Below, in pieces: positions 19,734 to 41,885 of a DNA stretch of 64,000 nt. Source of the stretch: Deltaproteobacteria bacterium (GTDB lineage Bacteria > Desulfobacterota > SM23-61); assembly GCA_016875165.1 (NCBI GenBank), contig VGSF01000007.1, positions 15,616 through 79,615 of the forward strand, in the 5' to 3' direction. The position numbers and the translations under genes were made by a program. Below the pieces are notes generated by a model. The model had not been told where the DNA came from. It searched no databases and saw only the letters and a list, made by a program, of their open reading frames with translations. Within the stretch, counting starts at the first letter, position 1. Each line of letters starts with the position of its first letter.

Positions 19734-20066
19734 ATGCCAAGAAAAGCGCGATTAGATGTTCCCGGAGCTTTACACCACATCATGGTGCGCGGGGTCAACA
19801 AGTCAGCCATCTTCGATGATGACCAGGATAGACAGAAGTTAATGGAGCGGTTGGAAGAGAACATTGTTGAAGCAAAGTGCTCGATTTATGCCTGGGTTCT
19901 TATGACAAATCATTTATTATTCAAGAACGGCGGCAAAGGCAATTCAACGGTTATGCGGAAGCTTCTGACCTGGTACGCCATCTATTACAACCGACATCAT
20001 CGGCGAATAGGCCAGTGTACATCGACTGTCACGCGAGCACTAACCAGATCGGAGAAGGCGGCATGA
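19734..20066 (+). pseudogene. Internally deleted REP-associated tyrosine transposase (RAYT/Y1)
   Basis: MPRKARLDVPGALHHIMVRG...YAWVLMTNH; second His of HUH missing; ends shortly after YYNRHHRRIG, before the catalytic Tyr region. Confidence 0.85.
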
Positions 20067-26976: not shown

Positions 26977-27387
26977 ATGCCTCGCCGGAATGCTGCCCAA
27001 AGGGGGTTCTCCCGGGGAAAACGTTTTTTTGAAAATTTGGTCAGAGAGGCTATAGAGGCTATTCCAGAAGAGATGAAAAACCGGCTGGAAAACGTGGCCA
27101 TCCTGATCGAAGAGGACCGTTTAAGCAATTCAGGGGAAGGGGAAGAGGAAGAAAACGGGCAAGAGCTGCTCGGGCTCTATGAAGGCATACCGAAAAAAGA
27201 CCGCGGTTTTTGGTATGGAAATACTCTTCCTGATCGCATAGTGATATACCGAAAACCCCTGGAGCGCATGAGCTCGACGTTATCAGAACTTAGGGAGAAC
27301 ATTCGCCAGACCGTAATTCACGAGATTGGCCATTATTTCGGGTTTGATGAAGAAGAACTCCAGCAGTTGGAAGATGGGGATATTTAA
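26977..27387 (+). CDS. Minimal zincin-like metallopeptidase
   Basis: LLGLYEG, PDRIVIYRKP, TVIHEIGHYFG. Confidence 0.9.
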   Translation: MPRRNAAQRGFSRGKRFFENLVREAIEAIPEEMKNRLENVAILIEEDRLSNSGEGEEEENGQELLGLYEGIPKKDRGFWYGNTLPDRIVIYRKPLERMSSTLSELRENIRQTVIHEIGHYFGFDEEELQQLEDGDI

Positions 27388-27704: not shown

Positions 27705-29249
27705 TTAACATGGGGGAATGCCGTGTTTCTTTGAGGCTCTTTCCTCTTTTTTGGCCGAAAGATCTTCCAGAACCCTGATCAATTCCTGCCGGGTGTGCCG
27801 GGGATCGATAATAGCGTTGAGAAGCCCGTAGGAAGCGGCATAATAGGGATGAGAGAATTTCTCCTGGTATTCCTTTTCTTTTTCCCGCCGAAATTTTTCC
27901 GAATCAACGGCTTCTCTGATTTCTTTTCTGAAAAGAATGTTTACTGCCCCTTCCGCTCCCATGACGGCGATAGATGCTGTGGGATAAGCCAGAATATAAT
28001 CAAAGCCCATTCCCTGGGAGCAGAGAGCAATATAAGCCCCGCCAAAGGCTTTGCGTAAAATAAGGGAGATTTTGGGGACGGTGGCCTCGGAGTAGGCATA
28101 CAGAATTTTGGCTCCATGCCGGATAATTCCCTTATGCTCCTGGTCGGTTCCCGGCAAGTAGCCGGGGACATCGACCAGGTTGATTATGGGAATGTTAAAA
28201 GCATCACAGAACCTTACAAAGCGGGCGATCTTATCCGAAGAGTCGATATCCAGGACTCCGGCCATGATCAGCGGTTGATTGGCCACGATGCCCACCACCT
28301 TTCCGGCGAGGCGGGCCAGACCGATCACCGCGTTGGGGGCAAAGAAAGCCTGAACTTCCAAAAAATCCTGATGGTCCACAATGCGGTGAATTACTTCCTT
28401 GATGTCGTAAACTTCCTCGGATGAAACCGGTATAAGTGCTTCTATATTTTCGTCGGGCGCTTCCTGATCTTGCGGGGAGCGGGATACGGGGGGAAGTTCG
28501 TAGCAATTCGCGGGGAGGAAGCTCAAGAGTTTTCTGACGTAAGAAAAACATTCTTCTTCGGTAGGCAAGGCGAAATGAGCCACTCCGCTCACTTCATTAT
28601 GAATTCGGGCTCCGCCCAACTCTTCAAAAGAAACTTCTTCCCCGGTTACCTGCTTGATGACTTCCGGGCCGGTGATGAACATGCGGCCGATTCCCTCGAC
28701 CATGAAGACGAAATCCGTCAGAGCCGGGGAATAAACCGCTCCCCCGGCCGTGGGGCCGGCCATGATAGATATCTGCGGAATGAGGCCGGAGGCCAGGGAG
28801 TTTCTCCGAAATATATGGCCATAGCCGTTTAAGGCCAGGACCCCTTCCTGGATTCTGGCGCCCCCTGAGTCCAGGATCTGGATGAAGGGGCGGCGGTTCT
28901 TTATGGCCAGGTCCTGGCAGGCGGCGATTTTATTGGCCTGCATTTCCCCCAGGGTTCCTCCCATGATCGTAAAATCCTGAGAGACGAGGAAAACCAGGCG
29001 GCCATCAATGCGGCCGCTCCCGCTGACAACCCCGTCGCCCGGGAATTTCCTTCTGTCCATGCCAAAATCCTGGCAGCGGGAGGTGACGAAAGGATCTAAT
29101 TCGTGGAAGCTCTCTTTATCTAAAAGCAGGTCGATCCTTTCCCGGGCGGTTTTCTTCCCGGAGGATTTTTGTTTTTCAAGTTCTTTCGCTCCACCGCCGG
29201 CCCGGGTTTCTTTAATTTTTTTTCGTAATTTTTCGAGCAGTTCTTCCAT
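27705..29249 (-). CDS. Acyl-CoA carboxyltransferase (PccB/MmdA family)
   Basis: TARERI, PGDGVV, GGTLG, DSGGARIQEG, DVPGYLPG, RKAFGGAY, KKHGIPP; true start ATG 29249 (the ORF-track extension runs through a MITE). Confidence 0.93.
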   Translation of the reverse strand: MEELLEKLRKKIKETRAGGGAKELEKQKSSGKKTARERIDLLLDKESFHELDPFVTSRCQDFGMDRRKFPGDGVVSGSGRIDGRLVFLVSQDFTIMGGTLGEMQANKIAACQDLAIKNRRPFIQILDSGGARIQEGVLALNGYGHIFRRNSLASGLIPQISIMAGPTAGGAVYSPALTDFVFMVEGIGRMFITGPEVIKQVTGEEVSFEELGGARIHNEVSGVAHFALPTEEECFSYVRKLLSFLPANCYELPPVSRSPQDQEAPDENIEALIPVSSEEVYDIKEVIHRIVDHQDFLEVQAFFAPNAVIGLARLAGKVVGIVANQPLIMAGVLDIDSSDKIARFVRFCDAFNIPIINLVDVPGYLPGTDQEHKGIIRHGAKILYAYSEATVPKISLILRKAFGGAYIALCSQGMGFDYILAYPTASIAVMGAEGAVNILFRKEIREAVDSEKFRREKEKEYQEKFSHPYYAASYGLLNAIIDPRHTRQELIRVLEDLSAKKEERASKKHGIPPC

Positions 29250-29318
29250 TATCTCCCCCCCTGGGCAATGGCCTAAACCTTTGTGGTTTAAGCGACCGGC
29301 CTGAAAAAAATCACTTAA

Positions 29319-29471
29319 GATGGCCTCGTAAAAAGTCCATCTGCGGCGTTGCGCTTCACCTTCATCGTTGCGGCGTACCTTGTAAGTACGCCTCACTCCT
29401 CAGGTTTTGCGCGCCTTGCATATGGAGCTTTTTACTTTGCCATCCAAATTTTGACTTTTTACGAGATCATC
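29319..29471. mobile_element. MITE family C with GCGGCGTAC-type cargo
   Basis: GATGGCCTCGTAAAAAGTC / GACTTTTTACGAGATCATC; 6-bp TSD ACTTAA. Confidence 0.88.
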
Positions 29472-30669
29472 ACTTAAGTTGCATGATAGTCACGTAAATG
29501 GCGCAGATAATTGCCGTGGTGATCACCCCGGCCACGCAGGGGCCCATGGCATGGGGCAGGATCATGATCGTTTCATCCTCTTCCATGGCGCATTTCTGGG
29601 CCACTTTGGCGGTGGTGGGAACGCAGGAGACGGCGGCAATGCCGATCAGGGGGTTGATCTTTCCCCCTGACCACTTGCAGACGATCAAACCCCCGATTAT
29701 TCCTCCGATTCCCGAAAGGAGGAGGGCTACCATTCCCAGGATCATGATCAAAAGAACCTTGGGATCCATCACGGTGGTTACGCTCAAAAGGGCCCCCAGG
29801 GTAATCCCCAGGAAAAGAGTCGAACCAGAAAGAAGGATGTCCAGAAATTCCCGGAATCGCCCGATATTGGCCTCTTTCACGGCCACGCCCAAAAAGAAGC
29901 AAGTAAAAAGAGGGGCAGCCACCGGGAAGAGCAGACACAAAGTCACTCCCGCCACAACGGCAAAGAAAAATTTTTCCGCGGGGGTGACCGGGCGGATATC
30001 CATGGGATCCATGGCAATGGCCCGCAGCCTTTTGGGAATTAACAGTTTAGCTAAATAGGGGAAGACGGCGTAGCAGATTCCCAGATATACATAGGCCACA
30101 ACGGAAATAGGCACGAAAAGGTGCTTGGCCAGGATCAGAGAGGTGAAGAGAACCATGGGGCCGTCCGCTCCCCCCACAATGGCAATCGAGGCCGCCTCTT
30201 TGAAGTCAAATCCCAGGGCCACCGCCAGAGGAAAGGTCAGGATCGTTCCCAACTCGGCAAAGACCGCGAGAAAAAGGCTGAGAAAAGGGCGGGCCATGAA
30301 AAAATCCAGGTCGGTGATAGCCCCGATCCCTAAAAAAACCAAGCAGGCGATCAGGCCGTTGGCAAACGTGAAAGTATAAATAGGCTGGAGAAAATAAATC
30401 TGCAGGGCCTCAAGGAGTTTGGCCGGCTCGCTGGCCAAAGGATCGATAAAAAGAGTGCCCAGTTCTCCTTTGGTCATGATCAGTATGCCGGCATTGACCA
30501 CGGCCATCATGAAGCCCATGGGCACCATGAGCAGGGGATCGAGCTTCTCTTTGAACCCCAGATAAACCAGGAGGAACCCCAGGAGAATGAGAAAGATGCG
30601 GATCAGGATTTGTCCGGTTTCCATCAGGGCAAAGGAAGAAAGCCCCGGGAAGAAGTCCCATATGTTCAT
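29470..30669 (-). CDS. Ion-translocating carboxybiotin decarboxylase beta subunit, MadB-like subgroup of the OadB family
   Basis: 399 aa, very hydrophobic; GGADGP, INPLIG; signatures LQPIYTFTFANGLIAC, GPMVLF, VSCVPTTAK as recalled for MadB rather than OadB/MmdB (VSAVPMAAR). Confidence 0.88.
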   Translation of the reverse strand: MNIWDFFPGLSSFALMETGQILIRIFLILLGFLLVYLGFKEKLDPLLMVPMGFMMAVVNAGILIMTKGELGTLFIDPLASEPAKLLEALQIYFLQPIYTFTFANGLIACLVFLGIGAITDLDFFMARPFLSLFLAVFAELGTILTFPLAVALGFDFKEAASIAIVGGADGPMVLFTSLILAKHLFVPISVVAYVYLGICYAVFPYLAKLLIPKRLRAIAMDPMDIRPVTPAEKFFFAVVAGVTLCLLFPVAAPLFTCFFLGVAVKEANIGRFREFLDILLSGSTLFLGITLGALLSVTTVMDPKVLLIMILGMVALLLSGIGGIIGGLIVCKWSGGKINPLIGIAAVSCVPTTAKVAQKCAMEEDETIMILPHAMGPCVAGVITTAIICAIYVTIMQLK

Positions 30670-30684
30670 GCTGGCGCTCCTTAT

Positions 30685-30807
30685 TTATTCGCGGCTGGAG
30701 GTGATCTTTCTCAGAAGGAGGATGATCACCCCCATGAGCATGGAAGCGGCGAGGGTCACAGCATAGGTAAAACCAGCTATCTCAAGGGCTGATATGATTT
30801 TTTCCAT
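30685..30807 (-). CDS. 40-aa single-TM peptide, probable gamma/delta-type pump subunit (not in ORF track)
   Basis: MEKIISALEIAGFTYAVTLAASMLMGVIILLLRKITSSRE fills the gap between biotin carrier and beta subunit. Confidence 0.7.
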   Translation of the reverse strand: MEKIISALEIAGFTYAVTLAASMLMGVIILLLRKITSSRE

Positions 30808-30815
30808 GATAAATA

Positions 30816-31034
30816 TTAACTGATCACGGCCAGGATGTGCCCTTTATTAAGGACCTGGCCTACCTGGGCATTCAGCTCCCGGACAACCCCTTCCACGATG
30901 GAGTAGATCGGGATCTTCATTTTCATGCTTTCCATGACGGCAATGACGTCTTTCTTACGGACAGGGTCGCCGACTTTGACTTTCAGTTCGATCACTTTGC
31001 CCACCATAGGGATTTTGATTTCGGTTTTTTCCAT
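30816..31034 (-). CDS. Stand-alone biotin carboxyl carrier protein (72 aa)
   Basis: PMVGKV...VKVGD...MESMKM biotinylation motif; true start ATG 31034. Confidence 0.9.
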   Translation of the reverse strand: MEKTEIKIPMVGKVIELKVKVGDPVRKKDVIAVMESMKMKIPIYSIVEGVVRELNAQVGQVLNKGHILAVIS

Positions 31035-31077
31035 ACCTGATCCCCCTAAAATTCCTCCCTCATTATTATTATAATCT

Positions 31078-31268
31078 GAGGCTCTTGCAAAAGTATTTTT
31101 TTGTGGTTCGACAAGCTTGTCCTGAGCGAACCGTTCACCCTTCGAGAACCTCAGGGCGAACGGTGAGTCGAAGGGCTCACCACGAACGGAAAAACTAAAT
31201 AATTTCAACCTAAGCCCGTTCACCCTGAGCCTGTCGAAGGGTAAATTACGGACTTTTGCAAGAAGCTC
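31078..31268. mobile_element. MITE family B copy 2
   Basis: 191 bp, near-identical to 15816-16006; flanks ATCT/ATCA. Confidence 0.9.
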
Positions 31269-31286
31269 ATCAATCTCCGGTTTCGT

Positions 31287-32636
31287 TCAGCGGGTAATCA
31301 TCTTGTGCGGCAACCACAGGGTCAGCTCCGGCCAGATGGAGCAGATGACGATCCCCAGGAGGAGAATGATCACAAAAGGAATGGAGCCCATGAGCACCCT
31401 GGAGAGTGGAACGTCAGGAGCAATTCCCTGCACAATATAAAGATTCAGACCTACAGGAGGAGTGATCAAACCCACTTCCATGTTGATGGTCATGATTACC
31501 CCGAACCAGATAGGGTCGAAACCGTACTTCATTAATATTGGATGCAAAATAGGGGCCAAAATCAGGATGATGGCCACCGGCGGCAAAAAGCACCCCAGGA
31601 TCAGGAGGAAGACATTGATCAGAAACATAAGCATCCATTTGGAAAAGCCGGAGGCAACAATATGGTTAATGATCGACTGGGTAATGTAGAGTTTGGTCAG
31701 GACAGCCCCGAAGAGGAAAGAAGTCGCGATGATCAGCATGATCATGGTGCTCTCTTTTATGGTCATATGCAAAATATTTTTATAATCCTTTAAACGGAGG
31801 CGGTAGATGACTATGACCAGGAAAAAAGCGGCTACAGAGCCCACGCCCGCTGCCTCGCTGGGGGTGGCCCATCCCCCGTAGAGGCTGCCCATGATGATCA
31901 TGATAAGAAAGATGAACGGCGCCACCCGGGAGAGGGCTGAAAATTTTTCCTTCCAGGTGTAGGTAACCGTGTCAAAAAATTCCGCTCCGGCGGTTAAGGC
32001 GGGATTGACTGGTTCCCTGGCCTCCTTCAAGCGGGCCCACTGGGAATAAATGACCACCCAGATGGACATGAGGAGAGTAAGCATAATTCCCGGAATGATT
32101 CCGGCGATGAACAGCTTGCCTATCGAAGTCTGGGTGGCTATGCCGTAAACGATCATGGTCACGCTGGGAGGGATGAGAATTCCCAGGGTTCCCCCGGCTA
32201 CGATGCATCCCGTGGCCAGAGAATCCGGATATCCCCGTTTGCGCATCTCCGGGATGCCCATGGAGCCAATGGCCGCGGCCGTGGCCGGGCTGGAGCCGCA
32301 GAGGGCGGCAAAGATGGCGCAAGAAAAAATGTTGCTGACAGCCAGTCCTCCGGGCAGGCGGTGGAGCCATCGGTGCAGGCCTTCGTAAAGGTCAGAGCCG
32401 CTTTTGGTGGCGGCGATGGTGGCTCCCATGAGGATGAAAAGGGGAATGGCCAGCAGGCCGAAGTCGTTAATCCCTTCGTATACGATATGGGCCATGAGGT
32501 CGAACTGCATACGGTCCATAAAGAGAATAATGAAAATAACCGATGGAAAACCAAGAGCGAAGGCAATGGGCATGCCGCTCAGCAGAAAAAGAAGGGTAAC
32601 CAAACCAACGACAATTCCTAATATATTTGGGTCCAT
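31287..32636 (-). CDS. dctM: TRAP transporter large permease
   Basis: LLAIPLFI, GSSPATAA, GTLGILIPPS, ATPSEAA, ITPPVGLNL. Confidence 0.95.
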   Translation of the reverse strand: MDPNILGIVVGLVTLLFLLSGMPIAFALGFPSVIFIILFMDRMQFDLMAHIVYEGINDFGLLAIPLFILMGATIAATKSGSDLYEGLHRWLHRLPGGLAVSNIFSCAIFAALCGSSPATAAAIGSMGIPEMRKRGYPDSLATGCIVAGGTLGILIPPSVTMIVYGIATQTSIGKLFIAGIIPGIMLTLLMSIWVVIYSQWARLKEAREPVNPALTAGAEFFDTVTYTWKEKFSALSRVAPFIFLIMIIMGSLYGGWATPSEAAGVGSVAAFFLVIVIYRLRLKDYKNILHMTIKESTMIMLIIATSFLFGAVLTKLYITQSIINHIVASGFSKWMLMFLINVFLLILGCFLPPVAIILILAPILHPILMKYGFDPIWFGVIMTINMEVGLITPPVGLNLYIVQGIAPDVPLSRVLMGSIPFVIILLLGIVICSIWPELTLWLPHKMITR

Positions 32637-32716
32637 GGAGTTTTTTTCTCCTTCTGTTCAGATTACAGAGGCTCTCCCGCTCAGGGCTATGAAGTTCCGC
32701 CCTGCCAGTATAGGAG

Positions 32717-33226
32717 TTATTTTTTGGGAGATTCTTTTATATCTTTGAACCATCCGATTTTGAATAGATATTGAATAGATAAAAGGGTCATGCCCAGGGG
32801 CAAGAAAAAATAGGGAAAGGCCAGAGGAGGGCCCCATAAAGATTCCGACTTCCACCCTTTGGAGAAAGCTTCCCACCACATCTCCCACCCTTTCCAGGCG
32901 ATCAGGACGCAAAAAACAAAAGATAGGGCGGAGGTGACCTGGGAGAGTCTAACGTTGAACCCCGGGGGGAGCAGGCGGGTGATCAAGTCGATGTTGATGT
33001 GCGCGCCGTCTTTGAGCCCGTAGGCCGCTCCCAGGAAAGTGGCCATGATGGTCAGATAAACCGAGAACTCAATCTCCCATATGGTCGCGATTCTCAAGAC
33101 GTATCTCACGATTACTTCATAAGTAAGGACAAAGGCCGCAAGAACAATGGCCAGGCTGCTTAAAGTATAGAGAAATTGATTGAAACCCTCGACCCTCCGC
33201 GCCAGTCCCGAAAAAACCCTTTTCAT
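32717..33226 (-). CDS. dctQ: TRAP transporter small permease
   Basis: YEVIVRY, WEIE, GAHINID; about four TM helices. Confidence 0.92.
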   Translation of the reverse strand: MKRVFSGLARRVEGFNQFLYTLSSLAIVLAAFVLTYEVIVRYVLRIATIWEIEFSVYLTIMATFLGAAYGLKDGAHINIDLITRLLPPGFNVRLSQVTSALSFVFCVLIAWKGWEMWWEAFSKGWKSESLWGPPLAFPYFFLPLGMTLLSIQYLFKIGWFKDIKESPKK

Positions 33227-33270
33227 CGCTGCTTTCACCTCGCTGTTGCTTAAAAATCCTAAGTGCAAAC

Positions 33271-33301
33271 AGGTGCGACGCGGTCTTTTGGCGCCGCACC
33301 T
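33271..33301 (-). terminator. Hairpin between dctP and dctQ
   Basis: Minus strand AGGTGCGGCGC...GCGTCGCACCT followed by GTTT. Confidence 0.5.
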
Positions 33302-33352
33302 CTTTAGGGTTGCTTATTGGCAATTTTGTTCGCCCGGAAAGTTTGAGCTATT

Positions 33353-33636
33353 GTAACAGTTTAGCGATTTGAAAAAATGGTGTAAAAGCCTTTGTTTTGG
33401 GCCGGGGGTTAGAGCGGAACGCGCCGGAAGCATCGGCTGGGTTTCCGCTTGGCCACGAGGACAGAAGATCTTTTCCTCCGGAGGAGGCGGGGGTTCTTAC
33501 CCGCCCCATATGCGGAGAAATAAGCGCCTTATGATTCCAAGCGTTCCGCTCTGGCCCCCGGCCCCTGGAATCCCTTGGCCTTTACAACACACCTTTTTTC
33601 AAAATTTCAAAGAGCTAAAAAGAGCTAAAGTGTTAC
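33353..33636. mobile_element. MITE family A copy 4 (reverse)
   Basis: TSD GAGCTATT containing the dctP stop codon; small duplications within the terminal repeat. Confidence 0.92.
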
Positions 33637-33639
33637 GAG

Positions 33640-34680
33640 CTATTTAACTGCCAGAGCCATATCTAAAAGCTCTTTTCCGCCCTTGACTTTCTCGGTGTAC
33701 TCCTTCCAGGCCGTCTTCTTGGCCACCTCGGTCCAGAGCTTCAATTCCTCAAGGGTCAGGTCATGAACGATGACCCCTTTGGCCTTAAACAGGTCGGTGA
33801 CCTCGGTATCGTCTTTCACCGCTTCTTCCAGGGCAAATTTTTCCAATTCCTTGCCGACTTCCATCATGATCTTCTGCTGCTCCGGAGAAAGTTTTTTCCA
33901 GGTTATCATGCTTATCACTAACGGCTCGAACATATACCAGGTGGTGGTAATCCGGGGAGAGGTGTAGTATTTCACCTGCTCATAAAGGCGGAAGGATTCG
34001 AAGGAAGATGAAGAGGTCATGCAGGCATCCAGCACGCCGGTCTGCAGAGCAAAATAGATCTCTGTGGAAGGCATGCTGGATATGCCTGCTCCTGCGCCTT
34101 CGTGGAGCATCTTCTCAAACATTTTGCCGGCGGCCCGGATCTTGATGCCCTTCAAATCATCCGGACGAATGAGGGGTTTTGTCTTGGCGGCCAGGCCGCC
34201 CCCGCACCAGGCCCAGGTGAGGATCTTCATGCCGTTATCATCGCAGAGCTTCTCAATTGCTTTGCCTATGGGCGCGTCTTTCCAGCGCATGGCCTGGTAA
34301 TGGTCTTTGACCACGCAGGGCATAAGCGTTATGGAAAGTTGAGGAATTTTACCGGCGGCATAATCCAGGGGATAGACCGACATGTCCAGGGCCCCTTTGA
34401 GCATGGCGTCATATTGGGGAACTGGCTTAAAAAGGGCTGAGGCTGGGTAAATCTCAAATTTCAGAGACCCGCCGGTCCTCTCCTCAACCTTTTTGGCAAA
34501 AAGGCGACACAGGCGATCCCGGAAATCACCTTTGTCAATTGTTCCCGCCGGCCATTGATGGGAGATTTTCAGGGTGATGGATGGGCCCACCGGCTTGGCC
34601 TGGGCATGGGCCTCACCCCAGGTTAAAATAAAAAATAATGGTAACATTAGAACGCCAACTTTCATGATTCCCCTGTTCAT
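33640..34680 (-). CDS. dctP: TRAP transporter substrate-binding protein
   Basis: Signal peptide, LKISHQW, DLKGIKIRAAG (carboxylate-binding Arg), EIYFALQTGVLD. Confidence 0.93.
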   Translation of the reverse strand: MNRGIMKVGVLMLPLFFILTWGEAHAQAKPVGPSITLKISHQWPAGTIDKGDFRDRLCRLFAKKVEERTGGSLKFEIYPASALFKPVPQYDAMLKGALDMSVYPLDYAAGKIPQLSITLMPCVVKDHYQAMRWKDAPIGKAIEKLCDDNGMKILTWAWCGGGLAAKTKPLIRPDDLKGIKIRAAGKMFEKMLHEGAGAGISSMPSTEIYFALQTGVLDACMTSSSSFESFRLYEQVKYYTSPRITTTWYMFEPLVISMITWKKLSPEQQKIMMEVGKELEKFALEEAVKDDTEVTDLFKAKGVIVHDLTLEELKLWTEVAKKTAWKEYTEKVKGGKELLDMALAVK

Positions 34681-34766
34681 AATTACCCTCCTCTATTATT
34701 TAGTGCAAAACTCACCCCCTAAGGAGGTGTCCTAATTTTTTGGGAACCTGGTTTTTAAGAATGGCA

Positions 34767-35059
34767 GATGATCTGGGAAAAAGTCTCTTAGGTCGTCACC
34801 CCGGCGAAAGCCGGGGTCCAGAACATCTTGAAATAACTGGATTCCGGCTTTCGCCGGAATGACGGAAAACCGCATTGCCAGACTTTTTACGAAACCAGCA
34901 ATATATGATGATCTTGGAAAAAGTCGGCAGAAGAGTCATTGCGAGCGAAAGCGAAGCAATCTCGTTTTTATAAGTCCTTGAAAATACGGGATTGCTTCGT
35001 CGTCCCGCATTGGCGGAACTCCTCGCAATGACGAAAACGGGACTTTTTACGAGACCATC
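34767..35059. mobile_element. Two tandem MITE family C copies (34767-34899 degenerate; 34907-35059)
   Basis: Family C ends; second copy has 7-bp TSD AATATAT and is near-identical (inverted) to 54053-54205. Confidence 0.85.
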
Positions 35060-35180
35060 AATATATGCTGCCACAGGCTTCTAACAGATTCAATGGCCTT
35101 TTTTTGGCCACCGGAGCGGGGATTCTGCCCCTATTCCCTTTCCCGGTTCTCTATTATTTTAATCTCGGAGGAATAATGAA

Positions 35181-36227
35181 CTACGACAAGTAAGTTTCCA
35201 GCTCCTGGATGGCTTTCTCCATAGAGGCCTTATCTTCCATGTTGAGAAATTTGACGTTCGGATTGATTTTGCTGATCATGCCGGTGAGCACTTTTCCAGG
35301 GCCGATCTCGATGAAAAGTTCCACCCCGCTGGCGATCATTTTATCCACGCAGGATTTCCATAAAATCGGATTGTGAATCTGACTTACCAGCTCTTCGGCG
35401 ATGTGCCGGGGATCAACGATCCCCTGGGCGGAGGTGTTGGCGATAATGGGTCGTCTGGCCAGGCGAAGGTCCATCTTTTTTATGAAAGTTTCCATTTTTT
35501 CCGCGGCTGGTTTCATGAGGTAGGTGTGGAATGGGCCGCTAACCTTTAAGGGAATGGCTTTCAGCCCCATCTGCTCGGCTACTCTTTTGGCGTTCTTCAA
35601 ATTATCATCGAACCCGCCGACCACTATCTGAAAGTCCGTGTTATAAAGGGCGGTGTAGGTTTTTGACGATTTACAGACGACTTCGATGTCGCCGATCTTT
35701 TCCCGGCTCAGGATGGAGAGAAGGCCGGCATTGCCGATCTCTTCGCCGCAGCTTTGCATGAACTCCCCCCGGGCTTTGACCAGCCGTACGCCGGTTTCGA
35801 GATCTATTGCCCCGGCAGCGTAAAGCGCGGCGTATTCCCCCAGGCTGTGGCCGGCCGTGACATAGAAATCCAGGGCCAGACCCCTTTCTTTCAGAAGTTC
35901 CCGAAAGGCTTCGTAACAAGCCACCGAGGCGGTAAAGATAGCCGGCTGGGAGTACCGGGTCTGGTCGAGAATCCTCGTTCCCAGGCGGCCGATGAATTCC
36001 AGATGCAGCCGATCACCGACGTTTTCCAGCCATGTTTTGAACTTTTCCAGGGATCGTTTCTCATCCTTATCAAAACAAAGGTGGCAGAGGTTGTATCCCA
36101 GAATTTGGTTGGCCCGGTCGAAGACCGTACGGGAAGCGGGGAATTTTTCATAAAGATCCCCTCCCATCCCGGAATATTGGGACCCCTGGCCGGGGAAAAT
36201 CAAAGCAATTTTGGAAAAATCTTTCAT
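35181..36227 (-). CDS. fabD: Malonyl-CoA:ACP transacylase with an N-terminal-region insertion
   Basis: FPGQGSQ, GHSLGEY, RGEFMQ, VSGPFH, EIGPGKVL. Confidence 0.93.
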   Translation of the reverse strand: MKDFSKIALIFPGQGSQYSGMGGDLYEKFPASRTVFDRANQILGYNLCHLCFDKDEKRSLEKFKTWLENVGDRLHLEFIGRLGTRILDQTRYSQPAIFTASVACYEAFRELLKERGLALDFYVTAGHSLGEYAALYAAGAIDLETGVRLVKARGEFMQSCGEEIGNAGLLSILSREKIGDIEVVCKSSKTYTALYNTDFQIVVGGFDDNLKNAKRVAEQMGLKAIPLKVSGPFHTYLMKPAAEKMETFIKKMDLRLARRPIIANTSAQGIVDPRHIAEELVSQIHNPILWKSCVDKMIASGVELFIEIGPGKVLTGMISKINPNVKFLNMEDKASMEKAIQELETYLS

Positions 36228-36616: not shown

Positions 36617-36907
36617 TCAGGGAAAAGGACAGGTGCAGGGGGCAGATGAACAGATTGGGCATACCTTTGGGTATTTTTTCAGGACCTCGGACTCCAGGTC
36701 CACGCTAAGGAGGTTGGCCATCGAGGCCAGCCAGGCAAAGACGTCAGCCATCTCTTTGCCCAGGTTTCCCTTTTCTCCCCGCCGGTAAGCTCGGGTGAGT
36801 TCCCCGACCTCTTCCAGAAACCAGAGGAAAGTTTTATCCGCACCCCGTTTAGCGTCGCGAGATAGGTAGAGTTCCCTAATCAAATTCTGGAATTCTTTGA
36901 TTTCCAA
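36617..36907 (-). CDS. MazG-like nucleotide pyrophosphohydrolase (single domain)
   Basis: WFLEEVGEL...EMADVFAWL...KKYP, Cys-rich tail; TTG start after GGAGGTG. Confidence 0.88.
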   Translation of the reverse strand: MEIKEFQNLIRELYLSRDAKRGADKTFLWFLEEVGELTRAYRRGEKGNLGKEMADVFAWLASMANLLSVDLESEVLKKYPKVCPICSSAPCTCPFP

Positions 36908-37006
36908 AGTCCACCTCCAGACCCCCACAGCTTATAAAAAGGCAAAATATTCTATTCATTTAACACGAATAAGGAGGTAAAACAAGGGTGAGGAAAAGAT
37001 TTCTTC

Positions 37007-39943: not shown

Positions 39944-40044
39944 ATTTATTTTCACCGCAGAGCGCGCAGAGGCCGCAGAGAATAAGGACTCAAACATTCA
40001 GCAAAAAGAATTATTCAAAGATAAACAGAAAAATTCTTTTTTGT

Positions 40045-40235
40045 GAGTTTCTTGCAAAAGTCCGTAATTTACCCTTCGACAGGCTCAGGGTGAACGGGCT
40101 TAGGTTGAAATTATTTAGTTTTTCCGTTCGTGGTGAGCCCTTCGACTCACCGTTCGCCCTGAGGTTCTCGGAGGGTGAACGGTTCGCGGAGGACAAGCTT
40201 GTCGAACCACAAAAAAATACTTTTGCAAGAGGCTC
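40045..40235. mobile_element. MITE family B copy 3 (reverse)
   Basis: 191 bp; TSD TTGT. Confidence 0.92.
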
Positions 40236-40324
40236 TTGTTTGTTATGATTTCCTTTTTTGGCTGTTTTTTATTATTCTCTGTACTACTAAAGTTCAATTT
40301 CTGAAAATTTTATTAAGATTTTTT

Positions 40325-40592
40325 GTAACACTTTAGCTCTTTGAAAAAAGGTGTGTCGTAAGGGTCAAGGGATTCCAGGGGCCGGAGCGGAATCCGCCTA
40401 AGGCGGAGAATCATAGGGCGCTTATATCTCCGCATATGGGGCGGGCAAGAACCCCCGCCTCCTCCGGAGGAAAAGATCTTTTGTCCCCGTGGCCAAGCGG
40501 AAACCCAACCGATGCTTCCGGCGCGTTCCGCTCTAACCCCCGGCCCAAAACAAAGGCTTTTGTACCATCTTTTCAAATCGCTAAACTGTTAC
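40325..40592. mobile_element. MITE family A copy 5
   Basis: TSD GATTTTTT. Confidence 0.92.
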
Positions 40593-40730
40593 GATTTTTT
40601 TATTTTATCTATATTTATCTGTGGTTATTTGTGTTCTAAATTGTCTTTTTTAACATCTTTCTTTATATCTCTGTGATCTCTGGGCCCTCTGCGGCAATAT
40701 TGTTTTAATTTAAAAGGAGATGGGCAAAGA

Positions 40731-41885
40731 ATGGATTATTTTTTGAACGAGGATCAGAAAGCCATCCGGGACCTGGCGCGAAAAATCGCCCAGGAGCGGG
40801 TGATGCCCGTGCGCGCGGAACTGGATGAAAAAGAAGAATTTCCCTGGGGGCCTTTGAAATATCTGGCCGATGTCGGCCTTTTCGGAGTGTACATTCCCGA
40901 AGATTATGGCGGCCTGGGGTATGGCTCTTTCGAGAATTGCCTGGCCATTGAGGAGATCTCCCGCGCCTGTATCGGGGTTTCTGTGTCCTTTGCCGCCTCC
41001 GGCCTGGGATCATATCCCTTCCTCCTCTTCGGCAGCGAAGAGCAGAAGAAAAGATACCTGCCGGATGTGGCCTCCGGGCGGAAACTGGCGGCATTCGGCC
41101 TTACGGAAGCCGGCGCCGGGAGTGACGCCGGGGGAATCCGCACTACGGCCAAGCGCGATGGAGATTCTTACATCCTTAACGGAACGAAGCAGTGGATCAC
41201 CAATGGGGGTGAAGCGGAATTTTATTCCGTGATTGCCCTGACGGACAAAGCCAAAGGTCCGCGCGGGGCCAGCGCTTTCCTCTTGGAAAAAGGCATGTCC
41301 GGGTTCAACTTCGGCAAAAAAGAAAAGAAATTGGGTATCCGCTGTTCAATGACCCGGGAGCTTGTCTTCGAGGACTGCCGGGTTCCCAAAGAGAGTCTTA
41401 TCGGACGGGAAGGGCTGGGGTTCATCGTAGCCATGCGCACGCTGGACAAGACCAGGCCGGGGATTGGCGCCCAGGCTGTCGGATTGGCCCAGGGGGCCTT
41501 TGAGGCGGCTGTGGAGTACGCCAGGGAGCGGCGCCAGTTCGAAAAGCCGATTATTTCCTTCCAGGCTGTCCAGCATATACTGGCCGACATGGCCGCAGAG
41601 ATCGAAGCCGCCCGCGCTCTGGTTTACGCCGTAGCCCGTTGGGTGGATACTAATCCCAAGGACATCTCCAGGTACTCGGCCATCTCCAAACTATTTCCCA
41701 CAGATGTGGCCATGAAGGTGACGGTTGATGCCGTGCAGATTTTCGGCGGCTATGGGTTCATGCGGGATTACCCGGTAGAAAAGATGATGCGCGACGCCAA
41801 AATCCTGCAGATCTATGAAGGAACAAATCAGATTCAACGCAACGTCATCGGCCAGTCGCTGATTAAAGAGTATGCCAGTAAATAA
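40731..41885 (+). CDS. Acyl-CoA dehydrogenase (short-chain/butyryl-CoA type)
   Basis: AFGLTEAGAGSDA, NGTKQWITNG, QIFGGYGF, KILQIYEGTNQIQR (catalytic Glu). Confidence 0.95.
   Translation: MDYFLNEDQKAIRDLARKIAQERVMPVRAELDEKEEFPWGPLKYLADVGLFGVYIPEDYGGLGYGSFENCLAIEEISRACIGVSVSFAASGLGSYPFLLFGSEEQKKRYLPDVASGRKLAAFGLTEAGAGSDAGGIRTTAKRDGDSYILNGTKQWITNGGEAEFYSVIALTDKAKGPRGASAFLLEKGMSGFNFGKKEKKLGIRCSMTRELVFEDCRVPKESLIGREGLGFIVAMRTLDKTRPGIGAQAVGLAQGAFEAAVEYARERRQFEKPIISFQAVQHILADMAAEIEAARALVYAVARWVDTNPKDISRYSAISKLFPTDVAMKVTVDAVQIFGGYGFMRDYPVEKMMRDAKILQIYEGTNQIQRNVIGQSLIKEYASK

Follow-up and report, generated by a model that had tools for sequence, protein, structure and literature searches.

A putative malonate catabolic module with a MadB-related decarboxylase pump, a PccB-type carboxyltransferase and a TRAP importer in a deltaproteobacterial genome

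Background

A 2021 review lists four sodium-pumping decarboxylases, i.e., those acting on oxaloacetate, methylmalonyl-CoA, glutaconyl-CoA and malonate (PMC8085960), and the malonate enzyme, Mad, is described as coupling decarboxylation to the export of Na+ (PMC8085960, PMC7274780). For the oxaloacetate enzyme, Glu40, Asp203, Arg304, Asn311, Ser382 and Asn412 of Salmonella OadB are reported to be essential (PMC7274780). Malonate uptake by a tripartite ATP-independent periplasmic (TRAP) transporter, MatPQM, is reported as well (PMC13134296). The literature searched, supplements aside, contained no description of a sodium-pumping malonyl-CoA decarboxylase. Here we describe a block of eight genes (positions 27705-36227) in a stretch of 64,000 nt from a deltaproteobacterial assembly (GCA_016875165.1, contig VGSF01000007.1, positions 15,616 to 79,615; hereafter the window), which combines a MadB-related membrane decarboxylase subunit, a CoA-ester carboxyltransferase, a TRAP importer and a divergent FabD, and which we read, on balance and with modest confidence, as a catabolic module in which imported malonate is decarboxylated to pump sodium.

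The window lies on contig C7 of a metagenome-assembled genome of an uncultured sediment bacterium (G000; 5.33 Mb in 234 contigs, 99% complete, 7% contamination). Near-identical proteins at NCBI are assigned to Thermodesulfobacteriota. G002 is a congener of G000, and G003, G004, G005 and G007 belong, like G000, to the window's family. Comparisons were made with 401 genomes of the phylum; with the best 80 species-representative loci ("the best 80 loci") drawn from at least 541 confirmed relatives of the beta subunit; and with L188, a locus on a 72.9 kb metagenome contig that bears the same parts. Family calls were based on Pfam and NCBIfam profile scans with curated cut-offs, and solved relatives were taken from the PDB.

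Gene content and proposed function

Open reading frames (ORFs) and family scans confirmed the eight co-oriented genes with the strand and order given in a preliminary description of this locus. That description had also stated that the cluster contains neither a biotin carboxylase nor the acyl carrier protein (ACP) genes of the Mad/Mdc type, and neither was found in the window cluster. The genes, listed from the fabD end, are as follows.

35181-36227, minus strand: FabD variant ("FabD-prime", 348 amino acids [aa]); PF00698, TIGR00128
33640-34680, minus strand: DctP, TRAP solute-binding protein; PF03480, 168.8 bits
32717-33268, minus strand: DctQ, small TRAP permease; PF04290, 98.7 bits
31287-32636, minus strand: DctM, large TRAP permease; PF06808, 329.7 bits; TIGR00786, 373.7 bits (cut-off 268.45)
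30816-31034, minus strand: biotin carrier, gamma-like, 72 aa from the ATG at 31034; PF00364, 60.4 bits
30685-30807, minus strand: 40-aa single-helix membrane peptide; no family match
29470-30669, minus strand: beta subunit, carboxybiotin decarboxylase / ion pump; PF03977, 352.3 bits; TIGR03136; TIGR01109
27705-29249, minus strand: carboxyltransferase, alpha-like, 514 aa from the ATG at 29249; PF01039, 609 bits

In the scheme that we favor, DctPQM would import malonate, possibly by sodium-coupled uptake, and a CoA-transferase or ligase encoded elsewhere would convert it to malonyl-CoA. The MadB-clade beta subunit, held together with the 40-aa peptide, would then decarboxylate carboxybiotin and export Na+. 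The FabD variant would serve fatty acid synthesis and could tap the same malonyl-CoA pool. The data show the gene content, the family membership, the synteny, the insertion history and the tie of the DctP subfamily to malonate. That malonyl-CoA is the substrate and that Na+ is the coupled ion, we infer, as we do the reaction's direction and which enzyme performs the activation.

The beta subunit belongs to a MadB-related clade

The beta subunit passed the cut-offs of both PF03977 (352.3 bits; cut-off 31.6) and TIGR01109 (216.7 bits; cut-off 190.6) and scored 462.6 bits with the MadB equivalog model TIGR03136, i.e., below its cut-off of 596.9. Four ordinary beta subunits, including the second copy of the source genome (contig C152), scored 446-545 bits with TIGR01109 and 148-178 bits with TIGR03136, whereas six that share the clade of the window beta subunit, taken from Betaproteobacteria, Bacillota, archaea and Alphaproteobacteria, scored 186-216 and 457-560 bits, respectively. 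These bimodal scores indicate that the beta subunit is not of the ordinary OadB/MmdB/GcdB type, and thus bear out the initial proposal that it is MadB-like rather than OadB- or MmdB-like. As assigned by curated-model scores, it is a member of a MadB-related deep clade, yet not a MadB equivalog. The TIGR03136 cut-off was reached neither in the 401 phylum genomes nor in 11 genomes from the same order as G368 (top score 528 bits), and a search with the most MadB-like beta subunit as query returned no named MadB among the 120 matches listed.

The three motifs by which the beta subunit had initially been recognized (GPMVLF, LQPIYTFTFANGLIAC and VSCVPTTAK) are present in its sequence and occupy invariant or near-invariant columns in a 12-sequence alignment of the clade. 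In the alignment to its sole solved homologue, Salmonella OadB (6iva, 150 bits), OadB has VSAVPMAAR where the window beta subunit has VSCVPTTAK. Equivalent positions, read by hand from this alignment, indicate that the first Na+ site is retained (OadB Asp203 and Ser382 correspond to Asp169 and Ser348), as are Arg304 (Arg271) and the fold residues Tyr229, Asn373 and Gly377, with Glu40 replaced by Asp44 and Asn311 by Asp277.

The clade, with its at least 541 confirmed relatives among species-representative genomes, extends over Thermodesulfobacteriota, Dehalococcoidia, Bathyarchaeota and polyphosphate- or glycogen-accumulating Betaproteobacteria, and its members carry generic annotations only. 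MadB-clade beta subunits were found in 24 of the 401 phylum genomes, and within the window's family in G000, G003 and G004 only. One locus context was seen with both beta types: a family III CoA-transferase and an ornithine-cyclodeaminase-family protein precede an ordinary beta subunit in G000 (C152:4647-7765) and a MadB-clade beta subunit, 64% identical to that of the window, in G004 (contig C149, L263:28-4927), where a CitE-like lyase is also present. The two types thus appear interchangeable at this locus.

The biotin carrier and the 40-aa peptide

The biotin carrier bears an SMKM biotinylation motif (a longer frame from a GTG start enters a repeat) and scored 34.6 bits with the MmdC model NF047903, against a cut-off of 200. 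A biotin carrier lies immediately upstream of the beta gene in 52 related loci, a partly redundant set, and in 48 of these 52 a small hydrophobic ORF (approx. 37-55 aa) is placed between the two; two of the four exceptions have no peptide ORF and two are doubtful. The intervening peptides from related loci align without internal gaps. The window's 40-aa peptide itself showed no family match in Pfam or NCBIfam and no detectable match to OAD_gamma.

When the beta subunit and the 40-aa peptide were modeled as a complex, the peptide, a single helix, packed against the beta subunit with a score of 0.62 (runs 0.60-0.65), as compared to 0.00 for the best of three controls. Of 80 solved complexes, 58 attained the mark applied to such models, as did 2 of 110 mismatched pairs. 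The runs shared at least 98% of their contacts, and the partner had a pLDDT of at least 78. The 40-aa peptide is thus probably an anchor subunit bound to the beta subunit, as far as the model and the conserved gene arrangement indicate.

A probable malonate-binding TRAP importer

The P, Q and M components of the TRAP system all scored over their Pfam cut-offs (PF03480, PF04290 and PF06808). The nearest solved relatives of the window DctP are 4mco and 4mev (E = 7.5e-94, 317.7 bits; runner-up 100 bits), with 58 identities in the first 103 positions aligned to 4mco (approx. 56%, hand count), while solved C4-dicarboxylate DctPs matched at approx. 72 bits. The binding site of 4MCO is reported to contain malonate (PMC4086125).

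In one betaproteobacterial family, 10 out of 151 genomes encode an orthologue of the window DctP (43-49% identical). Among nine dctPQM loci (eight from this family and one from a Sulfuritalea genome), five carry mdcA, mdcD and mdcE directly behind dctPQM, and four of these five carry mdcH too. The mdcA products in these loci scored 925-962 bits (cut-off 789), and the remaining four loci were devoid of mdc genes over the 18 kb inspected. The mdc operons behind dctPQM orthologues tie this DctP subfamily to malonate catabolism, and the window DctP is, on homology and gene context, probably a malonate binder. Energy conservation from TRAP-imported malonate, one of two functions initially suggested for the block, fits both the likeness to 4mco and the mdc-linked orthologues.

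In another set of loci (L257-L259, from G080, G040 and G115, all of one family), dctPQM (DctP 72-76% identical) lies beside an ECF/ABC transporter pair (CbiQ, ABC_tran) and a BirA-type biotin ligase-repressor, which suggests a link between the TRAP subfamily and biotin or its dicarboxylate precursor.

Linkage of importer and pump in related assemblies

In the window and in G003, a genome 97-98% identical to G000, the order is dctPQM-carrier-peptide-beta-carboxyltransferase. In G003, dctPQM, carrier, peptide and beta lie on one contig, with spacers of 83 nt (dctP-dctQ) and 65 nt. L188 holds the genes for a DeoR protein, the FabD variant and a LysR protein and, divergently, sucC-sucD-carrier-peptide-beta-carboxyltransferase-dctPQM-usp-family III CoA-transferase, followed by further genes. 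Its products are 74% (FabD variant), 82% (beta), 79% (carboxyltransferase) and 78, 62 and 65% (DctP, DctQ and DctM) identical to those of the window. The FabD variant of L188 lies approx. 3 kb from the pump and TRAP genes, and no fab gene was found within 10 kb on either side.

The L188 SucC and SucD scored 399.4 bits (cut-off 375.55) and 393.4 bits (cut-off 353.2), and the CoA-transferase is of the succinate-glutarate type. The L188 operon, as read from family matches, thus provides candidates for the activating enzymes that are missing from the window cluster. Homologues of the L188 CoA-transferase, approx. 51% identical, occur on contigs C12 and C15 of G000. A LysR homologue on contig C29 adjoins a truncated AMP-ligase fragment and is uninformative.

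The long spacers of the window block (fabD-dctP, dctP-dctQ and dctM-carrier) contain high-copy repeats.

34752-35058, no strand: repeat insertion in the fabD-dctP spacer, skipped in the contig of a related strain
33350-33621, no strand: repeat elements E2 and E3 in the dctP-dctQ spacer, with inverted copies at 40408-40595 and 40322-40385
31078-31269, no strand: repeat element E1 in the dctM-carrier spacer, with a 97% inverted copy at 40044-40235

The source genome contains 45 near-full-length copies of E1 (199 matches) and 272 of E2 (333 matches), and the 500-nt fabD-dctP spacer yields 424 blastn matches in G000. Such repeats could give chimeric joins. However, in an independent groundwater run, a 1259-nt contig of a related strain leads from the dctP start straight into the fabD end, skipping 34752-35058 (13 other letters stand there instead), which leaves approx. 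200 nt between fabD and dctP, and a second contig joins the carrier region to dctM while skipping 31047-31268. These repeat-less contigs indicate that the gene order is not an assembly artefact.

The approx. 190-nt intergenic repeat families occur at very high copy number, both in the operon spacers and in the gap from fabH to the acyl-CoA dehydrogenase gene (repeats at 40044-40595). Contig ends fall at such repeats in G003 and in the probable source run. The repeats had no match in Rfam, a scan of which gave only two sub-threshold microRNA chance matches, and the predicted fold of E2 was unremarkable (z = -1.2). A scan for promoters and terminators gave chance-level counts (11 against 9.6 expected and 15 against 16.3, respectively), and a hairpin at 34860-34841 falls within the repeat insertion. 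The ORF at 19734-20066 was considered as a transposase associated with repetitive extragenic palindromes and rejected, as it had no Pfam support.

The carboxyltransferase and the identity of the substrate

The best curated model for the carboxyltransferase is mmdA (TIGR01117), with 744.2 bits, which is under the cut-off of 998.8. Among solved proteins, 1vrg (642 bits), 1x0u (605), the Streptomyces PccB (584) and the 12S transcarboxylase (568) scored highest, while GcdA (3gf3) scored 119.8 bits only; the enzyme is thus not of the GcdA type, and its PccB, MmdA and 12S relatives point to a carboxyltransferase of the malonyl-/methylmalonyl-CoA type. The residue at PccB position 422 is Ile, as in 1vrg, 1x0u and 1xnw. 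At this position, we take it that Asp favors propionyl-CoA and that Ile admits acetyl-CoA and malonyl-CoA, so that the observed residue would be compatible with malonyl-CoA.

At E ≤ 0.001, G000, with its 99% completeness, yielded neither mdcA (TIGR01110) nor the malonate ACP (TIGR03130), and a tblastn search of this genome with a betaproteobacterial MdcA returned nothing at E ≤ 1e-5. These results suggest that the substrate is likely to be a CoA ester rather than an ACP ester. A standard malonate decarboxylase completed by mad ACP genes located elsewhere had been left open in the preliminary description; as no such genes were found in G000, a standard Mad/Mdc enzyme can be set aside.

The same description regarded the combination of a MadB-type pump with a CoA-ester carboxyltransferase as a hybrid. 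The pairing itself stands, although it is not special to this locus: a PccB/MmdA-type carboxyltransferase (at least 41% identity) is present in 33 of the best 80 loci by tblastn (35 when ORFs within 7 kb are clustered) and in 11 of 17 close metagenome loci (beta subunits 62-84% identical). These frequencies indicate a common architecture and not a one-off, and a MadB-clade beta subunit with a PccB-type carboxyltransferase is, by gene content, a common and undescribed arrangement. Besides carboxyltransferase and carrier, no catabolic partner was shared among the best 80 loci, whose neighbors include ClpC, RadA, dnaA/dnaN, glycolysis genes and polyhydroxyalkanoate (PHA) genes.

The mmdA match raises the alternative of a methylmalonyl-CoA decarboxylase sodium pump that would yield propionyl-CoA and be fed by methylmalonate or by succinate (through succinyl-CoA, a mutase and an epimerase). 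The best solved relatives of the carboxyltransferase bear annotations as beta subunits of propionyl-CoA carboxylase or alpha subunits of methylmalonyl-CoA decarboxylase. In addition, the L188 operon holds sucC, sucD and a succinate-glutarate-type CoA-transferase, and the Accumulibacter and Propionivibrio beta and carboxyltransferase genes lie amid glycolysis and PHA genes. However, the mmdA score is below its cut-off, the window DctP is far from C4-dicarboxylate DctPs and near 4mco, its orthologues accompany mdc operons, and the cluster contains no mutase or epimerase (a genome-wide search for these was not made). We consider this alternative unlikely, if still worth keeping in view, and favor malonate as the imported substrate.

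In Accumulibacter, Propionivibrio and Sulfuritalea (L048, L049, L061, L074, L079, L082, L084, L086, L089 and others), the MadB-clade beta and PccB-type carboxyltransferase genes are found among gap, pgk, pyk, phaR and a phaB-like reductase gene.

A different carboxy-acyl-CoA, e.g., ethylmalonyl-CoA or a short alkylmalonyl-CoA, or several carboxyltransferase paralogues served by one core, would fit with the observation that close beta subunits (78-84% identical) pair with carboxyltransferases that share only 52-56% identity with that of the window, or approx. 80% in L172, L182 and L188. It would fit also with the tally of 11 Carboxyl_trans matches to two beta subunits in G000, where carboxyltransferase paralogues on contigs C33 and C14 lie near CoA-transferases without a beta subunit or carrier of their own. 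As the DctP evidence favors malonate itself, we regard such substrates as distinctly improbable. The two PccB/MmdA-type paralogues (C14:46251-52598 and C33:17229-20013) adjoin family III CoA-transferases, and that on C14 has two further neighbors, a binding protein of the TAXI type (NMT1_3) and a large membrane protein.

The FabD variant and the history of the block

The FabD variant scored 108 bits with PF00698, 257.8 bits with TIGR00128 (cut-off 260.9; the match is split by an insert) and 195.7 bits with mdcH. The insert, of approx. 30 aa, follows residue 56. The variant is closest to solved FabDs, with 3ptw, matched in two stretches, as the best solved relative, and its wider relatives are deltaproteobacterial FabDs. 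The motifs GQGSQ, GHSLGE, RGxFM and PFH, which we take to be the FabD catalytic motifs, are all present. Searches at E ≤ 1e-90 found the variant in 5 of the 401 phylum genomes (G000, G003, G004, G005 and G007), all of the window's family. It is divergently adjacent to dctPQM in G004 and G007, and it stands alone between mazG and yceD in G005, which has neither the pump nor a DctP orthologue. No other FabD accompanies the fab genes in G000, G004, G005 and G007.

Three features outside the block bear on its history.

26977-27387, plus strand: Zincin_1 gene (PF06262), left flank of the block
36617-36928, minus strand: MazG-like gene (PF03819), right flank of the block, followed by yceD-rpmF-plsX-fabH
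41872-41885, plus strand: junction of the acyl-CoA dehydrogenase gene and fabG, canonical fabD missing (by synteny with G001 and G002)

The plsX, fabH and fabF genes of G002, of the same genus, are 89-95% identical to those of the window. The zincin and mazG genes are separated by 57 nt in G002 and by 22 nt in G005, with nothing between them, while all eight genes lie between them in the window. The fab cluster of G002 reads yceD-plsX-fabH-acyl-CoA dehydrogenase-fabD-fabG-fabF, as does that of G001, and the canonical fabD of both, placed between the acyl-CoA dehydrogenase gene and fabG, is 37-38% identical to the FabD variant. In the window, the acyl-CoA dehydrogenase gene and fabG overlap, which indicates that the canonical fabD is gone. 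By this comparison of gene order, the block, including the FabD variant, is an insertion relative to the congener, and the source genome has lost the canonical fabD. The opposite history, in which G001 and G002 would have shed the block and reacquired fabD, may instead apply. The initial idea of a relocated native fabD gives way, on G001/G002 synteny, to that of a divergent variant arriving with the block and displacing the canonical gene. We conclude from motifs and gene order that the FabD variant is a predicted competent FabD, which arrived together with the malonate genes, or next to them, and took the place of the native one.

The only other FabD homologue in G000 is located in a secondary cluster on contig C10 (C10:779-6769; 301 aa, TIGR00128 225 bits); its neighbors, by ORF reading only, are short-chain dehydrogenase-like, small ACP-like and FabZ-like. 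The acyl-CoA dehydrogenase gene at 40731-41885, an unusual member of a fab cluster, lies within the fab operon between fabH and the fabD/fabG position. Its best model is the acryloyl-CoA reductase AcrC (439 bits, cut-off 640), and its placement is shared by G001, G002 and G005 (92-94% identical).

The adjacency of fabD and pump had also given rise to a second proposal, in which the pump would run in reverse and turn acetyl-CoA into malonyl-CoA, for use by the neighboring FabD, with the ion gradient instead of ATP driving the carboxylation. The FabD variant is indeed near TRAP or pump genes in three arrangements (window and G003; G004 and G007; L188), and with the canonical fabD lost it is the variant that would feed fatty acid synthesis. 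However, a search of G000 for the genes of the ATP-dependent acetyl-CoA carboxylase found accA, accB, accC and accD all present: accC scored 677.9 bits (cut-off 626.5), accA 459 (319.3) and accD 407.8 (317.45), and the sole accC, on contig C185, adjoins an AccB-like Biotin_lipoyl ORF. The preliminary description itself had named a full ATP-dependent carboxylase among the findings that would count against a biosynthetic role. The TRAP importer of a probable malonate-binding subfamily and, in L188, the LysR and CoA-transferase genes are catabolic marks. Moreover, G005 has the FabD variant but neither pump nor TRAP genes, the pump occurs without the variant in all of the best 80 loci, and imported malonate would yield malonyl-CoA directly, so that a carboxylation would be needless. 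Given the complete carboxylase and the catabolic context, the gradient-driven carboxylase is left without support, and we consider it barely credible.

Neighborhood by historical accident, with TRAP, pump and fabD functionally unrelated at a rearrangement-prone, repeat-riddled site, would account for the high-copy repeats in all three long spacers and for the variation of the site beside the fab cluster among G002, G005, G004/G007 and the window. It would be consistent also with the best 80 pump loci, all of which lack both the FabD variant and TRAP orthologues (there were weak matches only, to dctM in two loci and to dctP in one). Conversely, L188 repeats the same set in another order, away from fab genes, and spacing is tight in the repeat-less relatives (83 and 65 nt in G003; approx. 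200 nt between fabD and dctP in the groundwater-run contig). We therefore judge accidental proximity to be very improbable and return to the malonate module as our preferred reading.

Evidence weighing against a malonate-driven pump

Several observations speak against a malonate-driven sodium pump. With regard to the importer, malonate is a common crystallization salt, and that found in 4MCO could have come from the crystallization liquor. DctP orthologues 68-82% identical to that of the window occur in 10 phylum genomes that have no MadB-clade beta subunit, where their neighbors differ (an AMP-ligase in G059; biotin transport genes with birA). The biological ligands of such templates are, by the account of the paper that describes malonate in 4MCO, not necessarily known (PMC4086125). 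With regard to the pump, Asn412 of the second Na+ site of OadB is Cys378 in the window beta subunit, and the favorable model of the beta subunit with the 40-aa peptide may mirror its likeness to 6iva, as the OadB-OadG complex has been solved. Ile at PccB position 422 is undiscriminating for the substrate, since 1vrg and 1x0u share it. The window cluster has no malonate-activating enzyme, and no malonyl-CoA synthase scored over the cut-off in G000 (the best of 48 matches had 394 bits against 558). The sucC and sucD genes of L188 would be equally suited to a route from succinate to methylmalonyl-CoA. Finally, as G000 and G003 are 97-98% identical, the linkage of TRAP and pump effectively comes from two independent assemblies.

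A more far-reaching proposal, which we make tentatively and which may well prove wrong, is that the block represents a fifth kind of sodium-translocating decarboxylase. This would be a malonyl-CoA pump of MadB-clade beta subunit, PccB-type alpha subunit, 72-aa carrier and approx. 40-aa anchor, carried on a self-contained mobile malonate island with a malonate TRAP importer and a FabD of its own, which would have displaced the native fabD. The carrier-peptide-beta core would perhaps be a common socket for several carboxyltransferase paralogues, in which case one pump could harvest energy from several dicarboxylates. If the malonyl-CoA pump is real, the block would be a gene set for the CoA-dependent fermentation of malonate, would offer sediment and groundwater anaerobes a route to subsist on a low-energy substrate, and would make a compact four-subunit sodium pump available for study. 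Displacement of a core fatty acid gene by a copy from a catabolic island would be an unusual xenologous replacement.

Comparison with known systems

Unlike GcdA and the ATP-dependent acyl-CoA carboxylases, the window system has a carboxyltransferase that is not of the GcdA type and a cluster without biotin carboxylase. The OadB-OadG complex (6iva/6iww) shares with it the first Na+ site and, in the model, a single-helix partner, while the window has no OadA-type alpha subunit, the 40-aa peptide has no OAD_gamma match and Asn412 is replaced by Cys. In the betaproteobacterial dctPQM-mdc operons, a DctP of the same subfamily (43-49% identical) likewise heads a malonate operon with a FabD homologue, MdcH. 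That homologue scores 262-280 bits with mdcH and 130-136 bits with fabD, the reverse of the window FabD (195.7 and 257.8 bits, respectively). Decarboxylation in the mdc operons and in the rhizobial matABC/matPQM systems is biotin-free and does not pump ions, unlike the process proposed here.

MmdABCDE of Veillonella and Propionigenium (EC 7.2.4.3) is alike in its PccB/MmdA-family carboxyltransferase, separate carrier, membrane beta subunit and small accessory subunit(s), and the Veillonella methylmalonyl-CoA decarboxylase also accepts malonyl-CoA. It differs in that the window beta subunit is of another deep clade (TIGR01109 216.7 against 446-545 bits), the carrier has 72 aa and an NF047903 score of 34.6 bits, a 40-aa peptide replaces MmdD/MmdE, and a TRAP importer, probably for malonate, accompanies the module.

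The Mad system of Malonomonas rubra (EC 7.2.4.4) is alike in its beta subunit, as the MadB equivalog is the curated model nearest to the window beta subunit (TIGR03136), and in its biotin protein, which is likewise small and separate. The window system, too, probably acts on malonate, and its decarboxylation may likewise be coupled to Na+ export. Conversely, the window beta subunit scores under the equivalog cut-off, G000 has no MadA/MdcA-type transferase or malonate ACP, a fused PccB/MmdA-type CoA-ester enzyme stands where Mad has MadC and MadD, and uptake would be by TRAP instead of MadLM. Overall, the architecture resembles that of methylmalonyl-CoA decarboxylase, with a MadB-type pump and a minimal anchor instead, and also the last two steps of the Malonomonas enzyme, and its scores and subunit content place it outside both.

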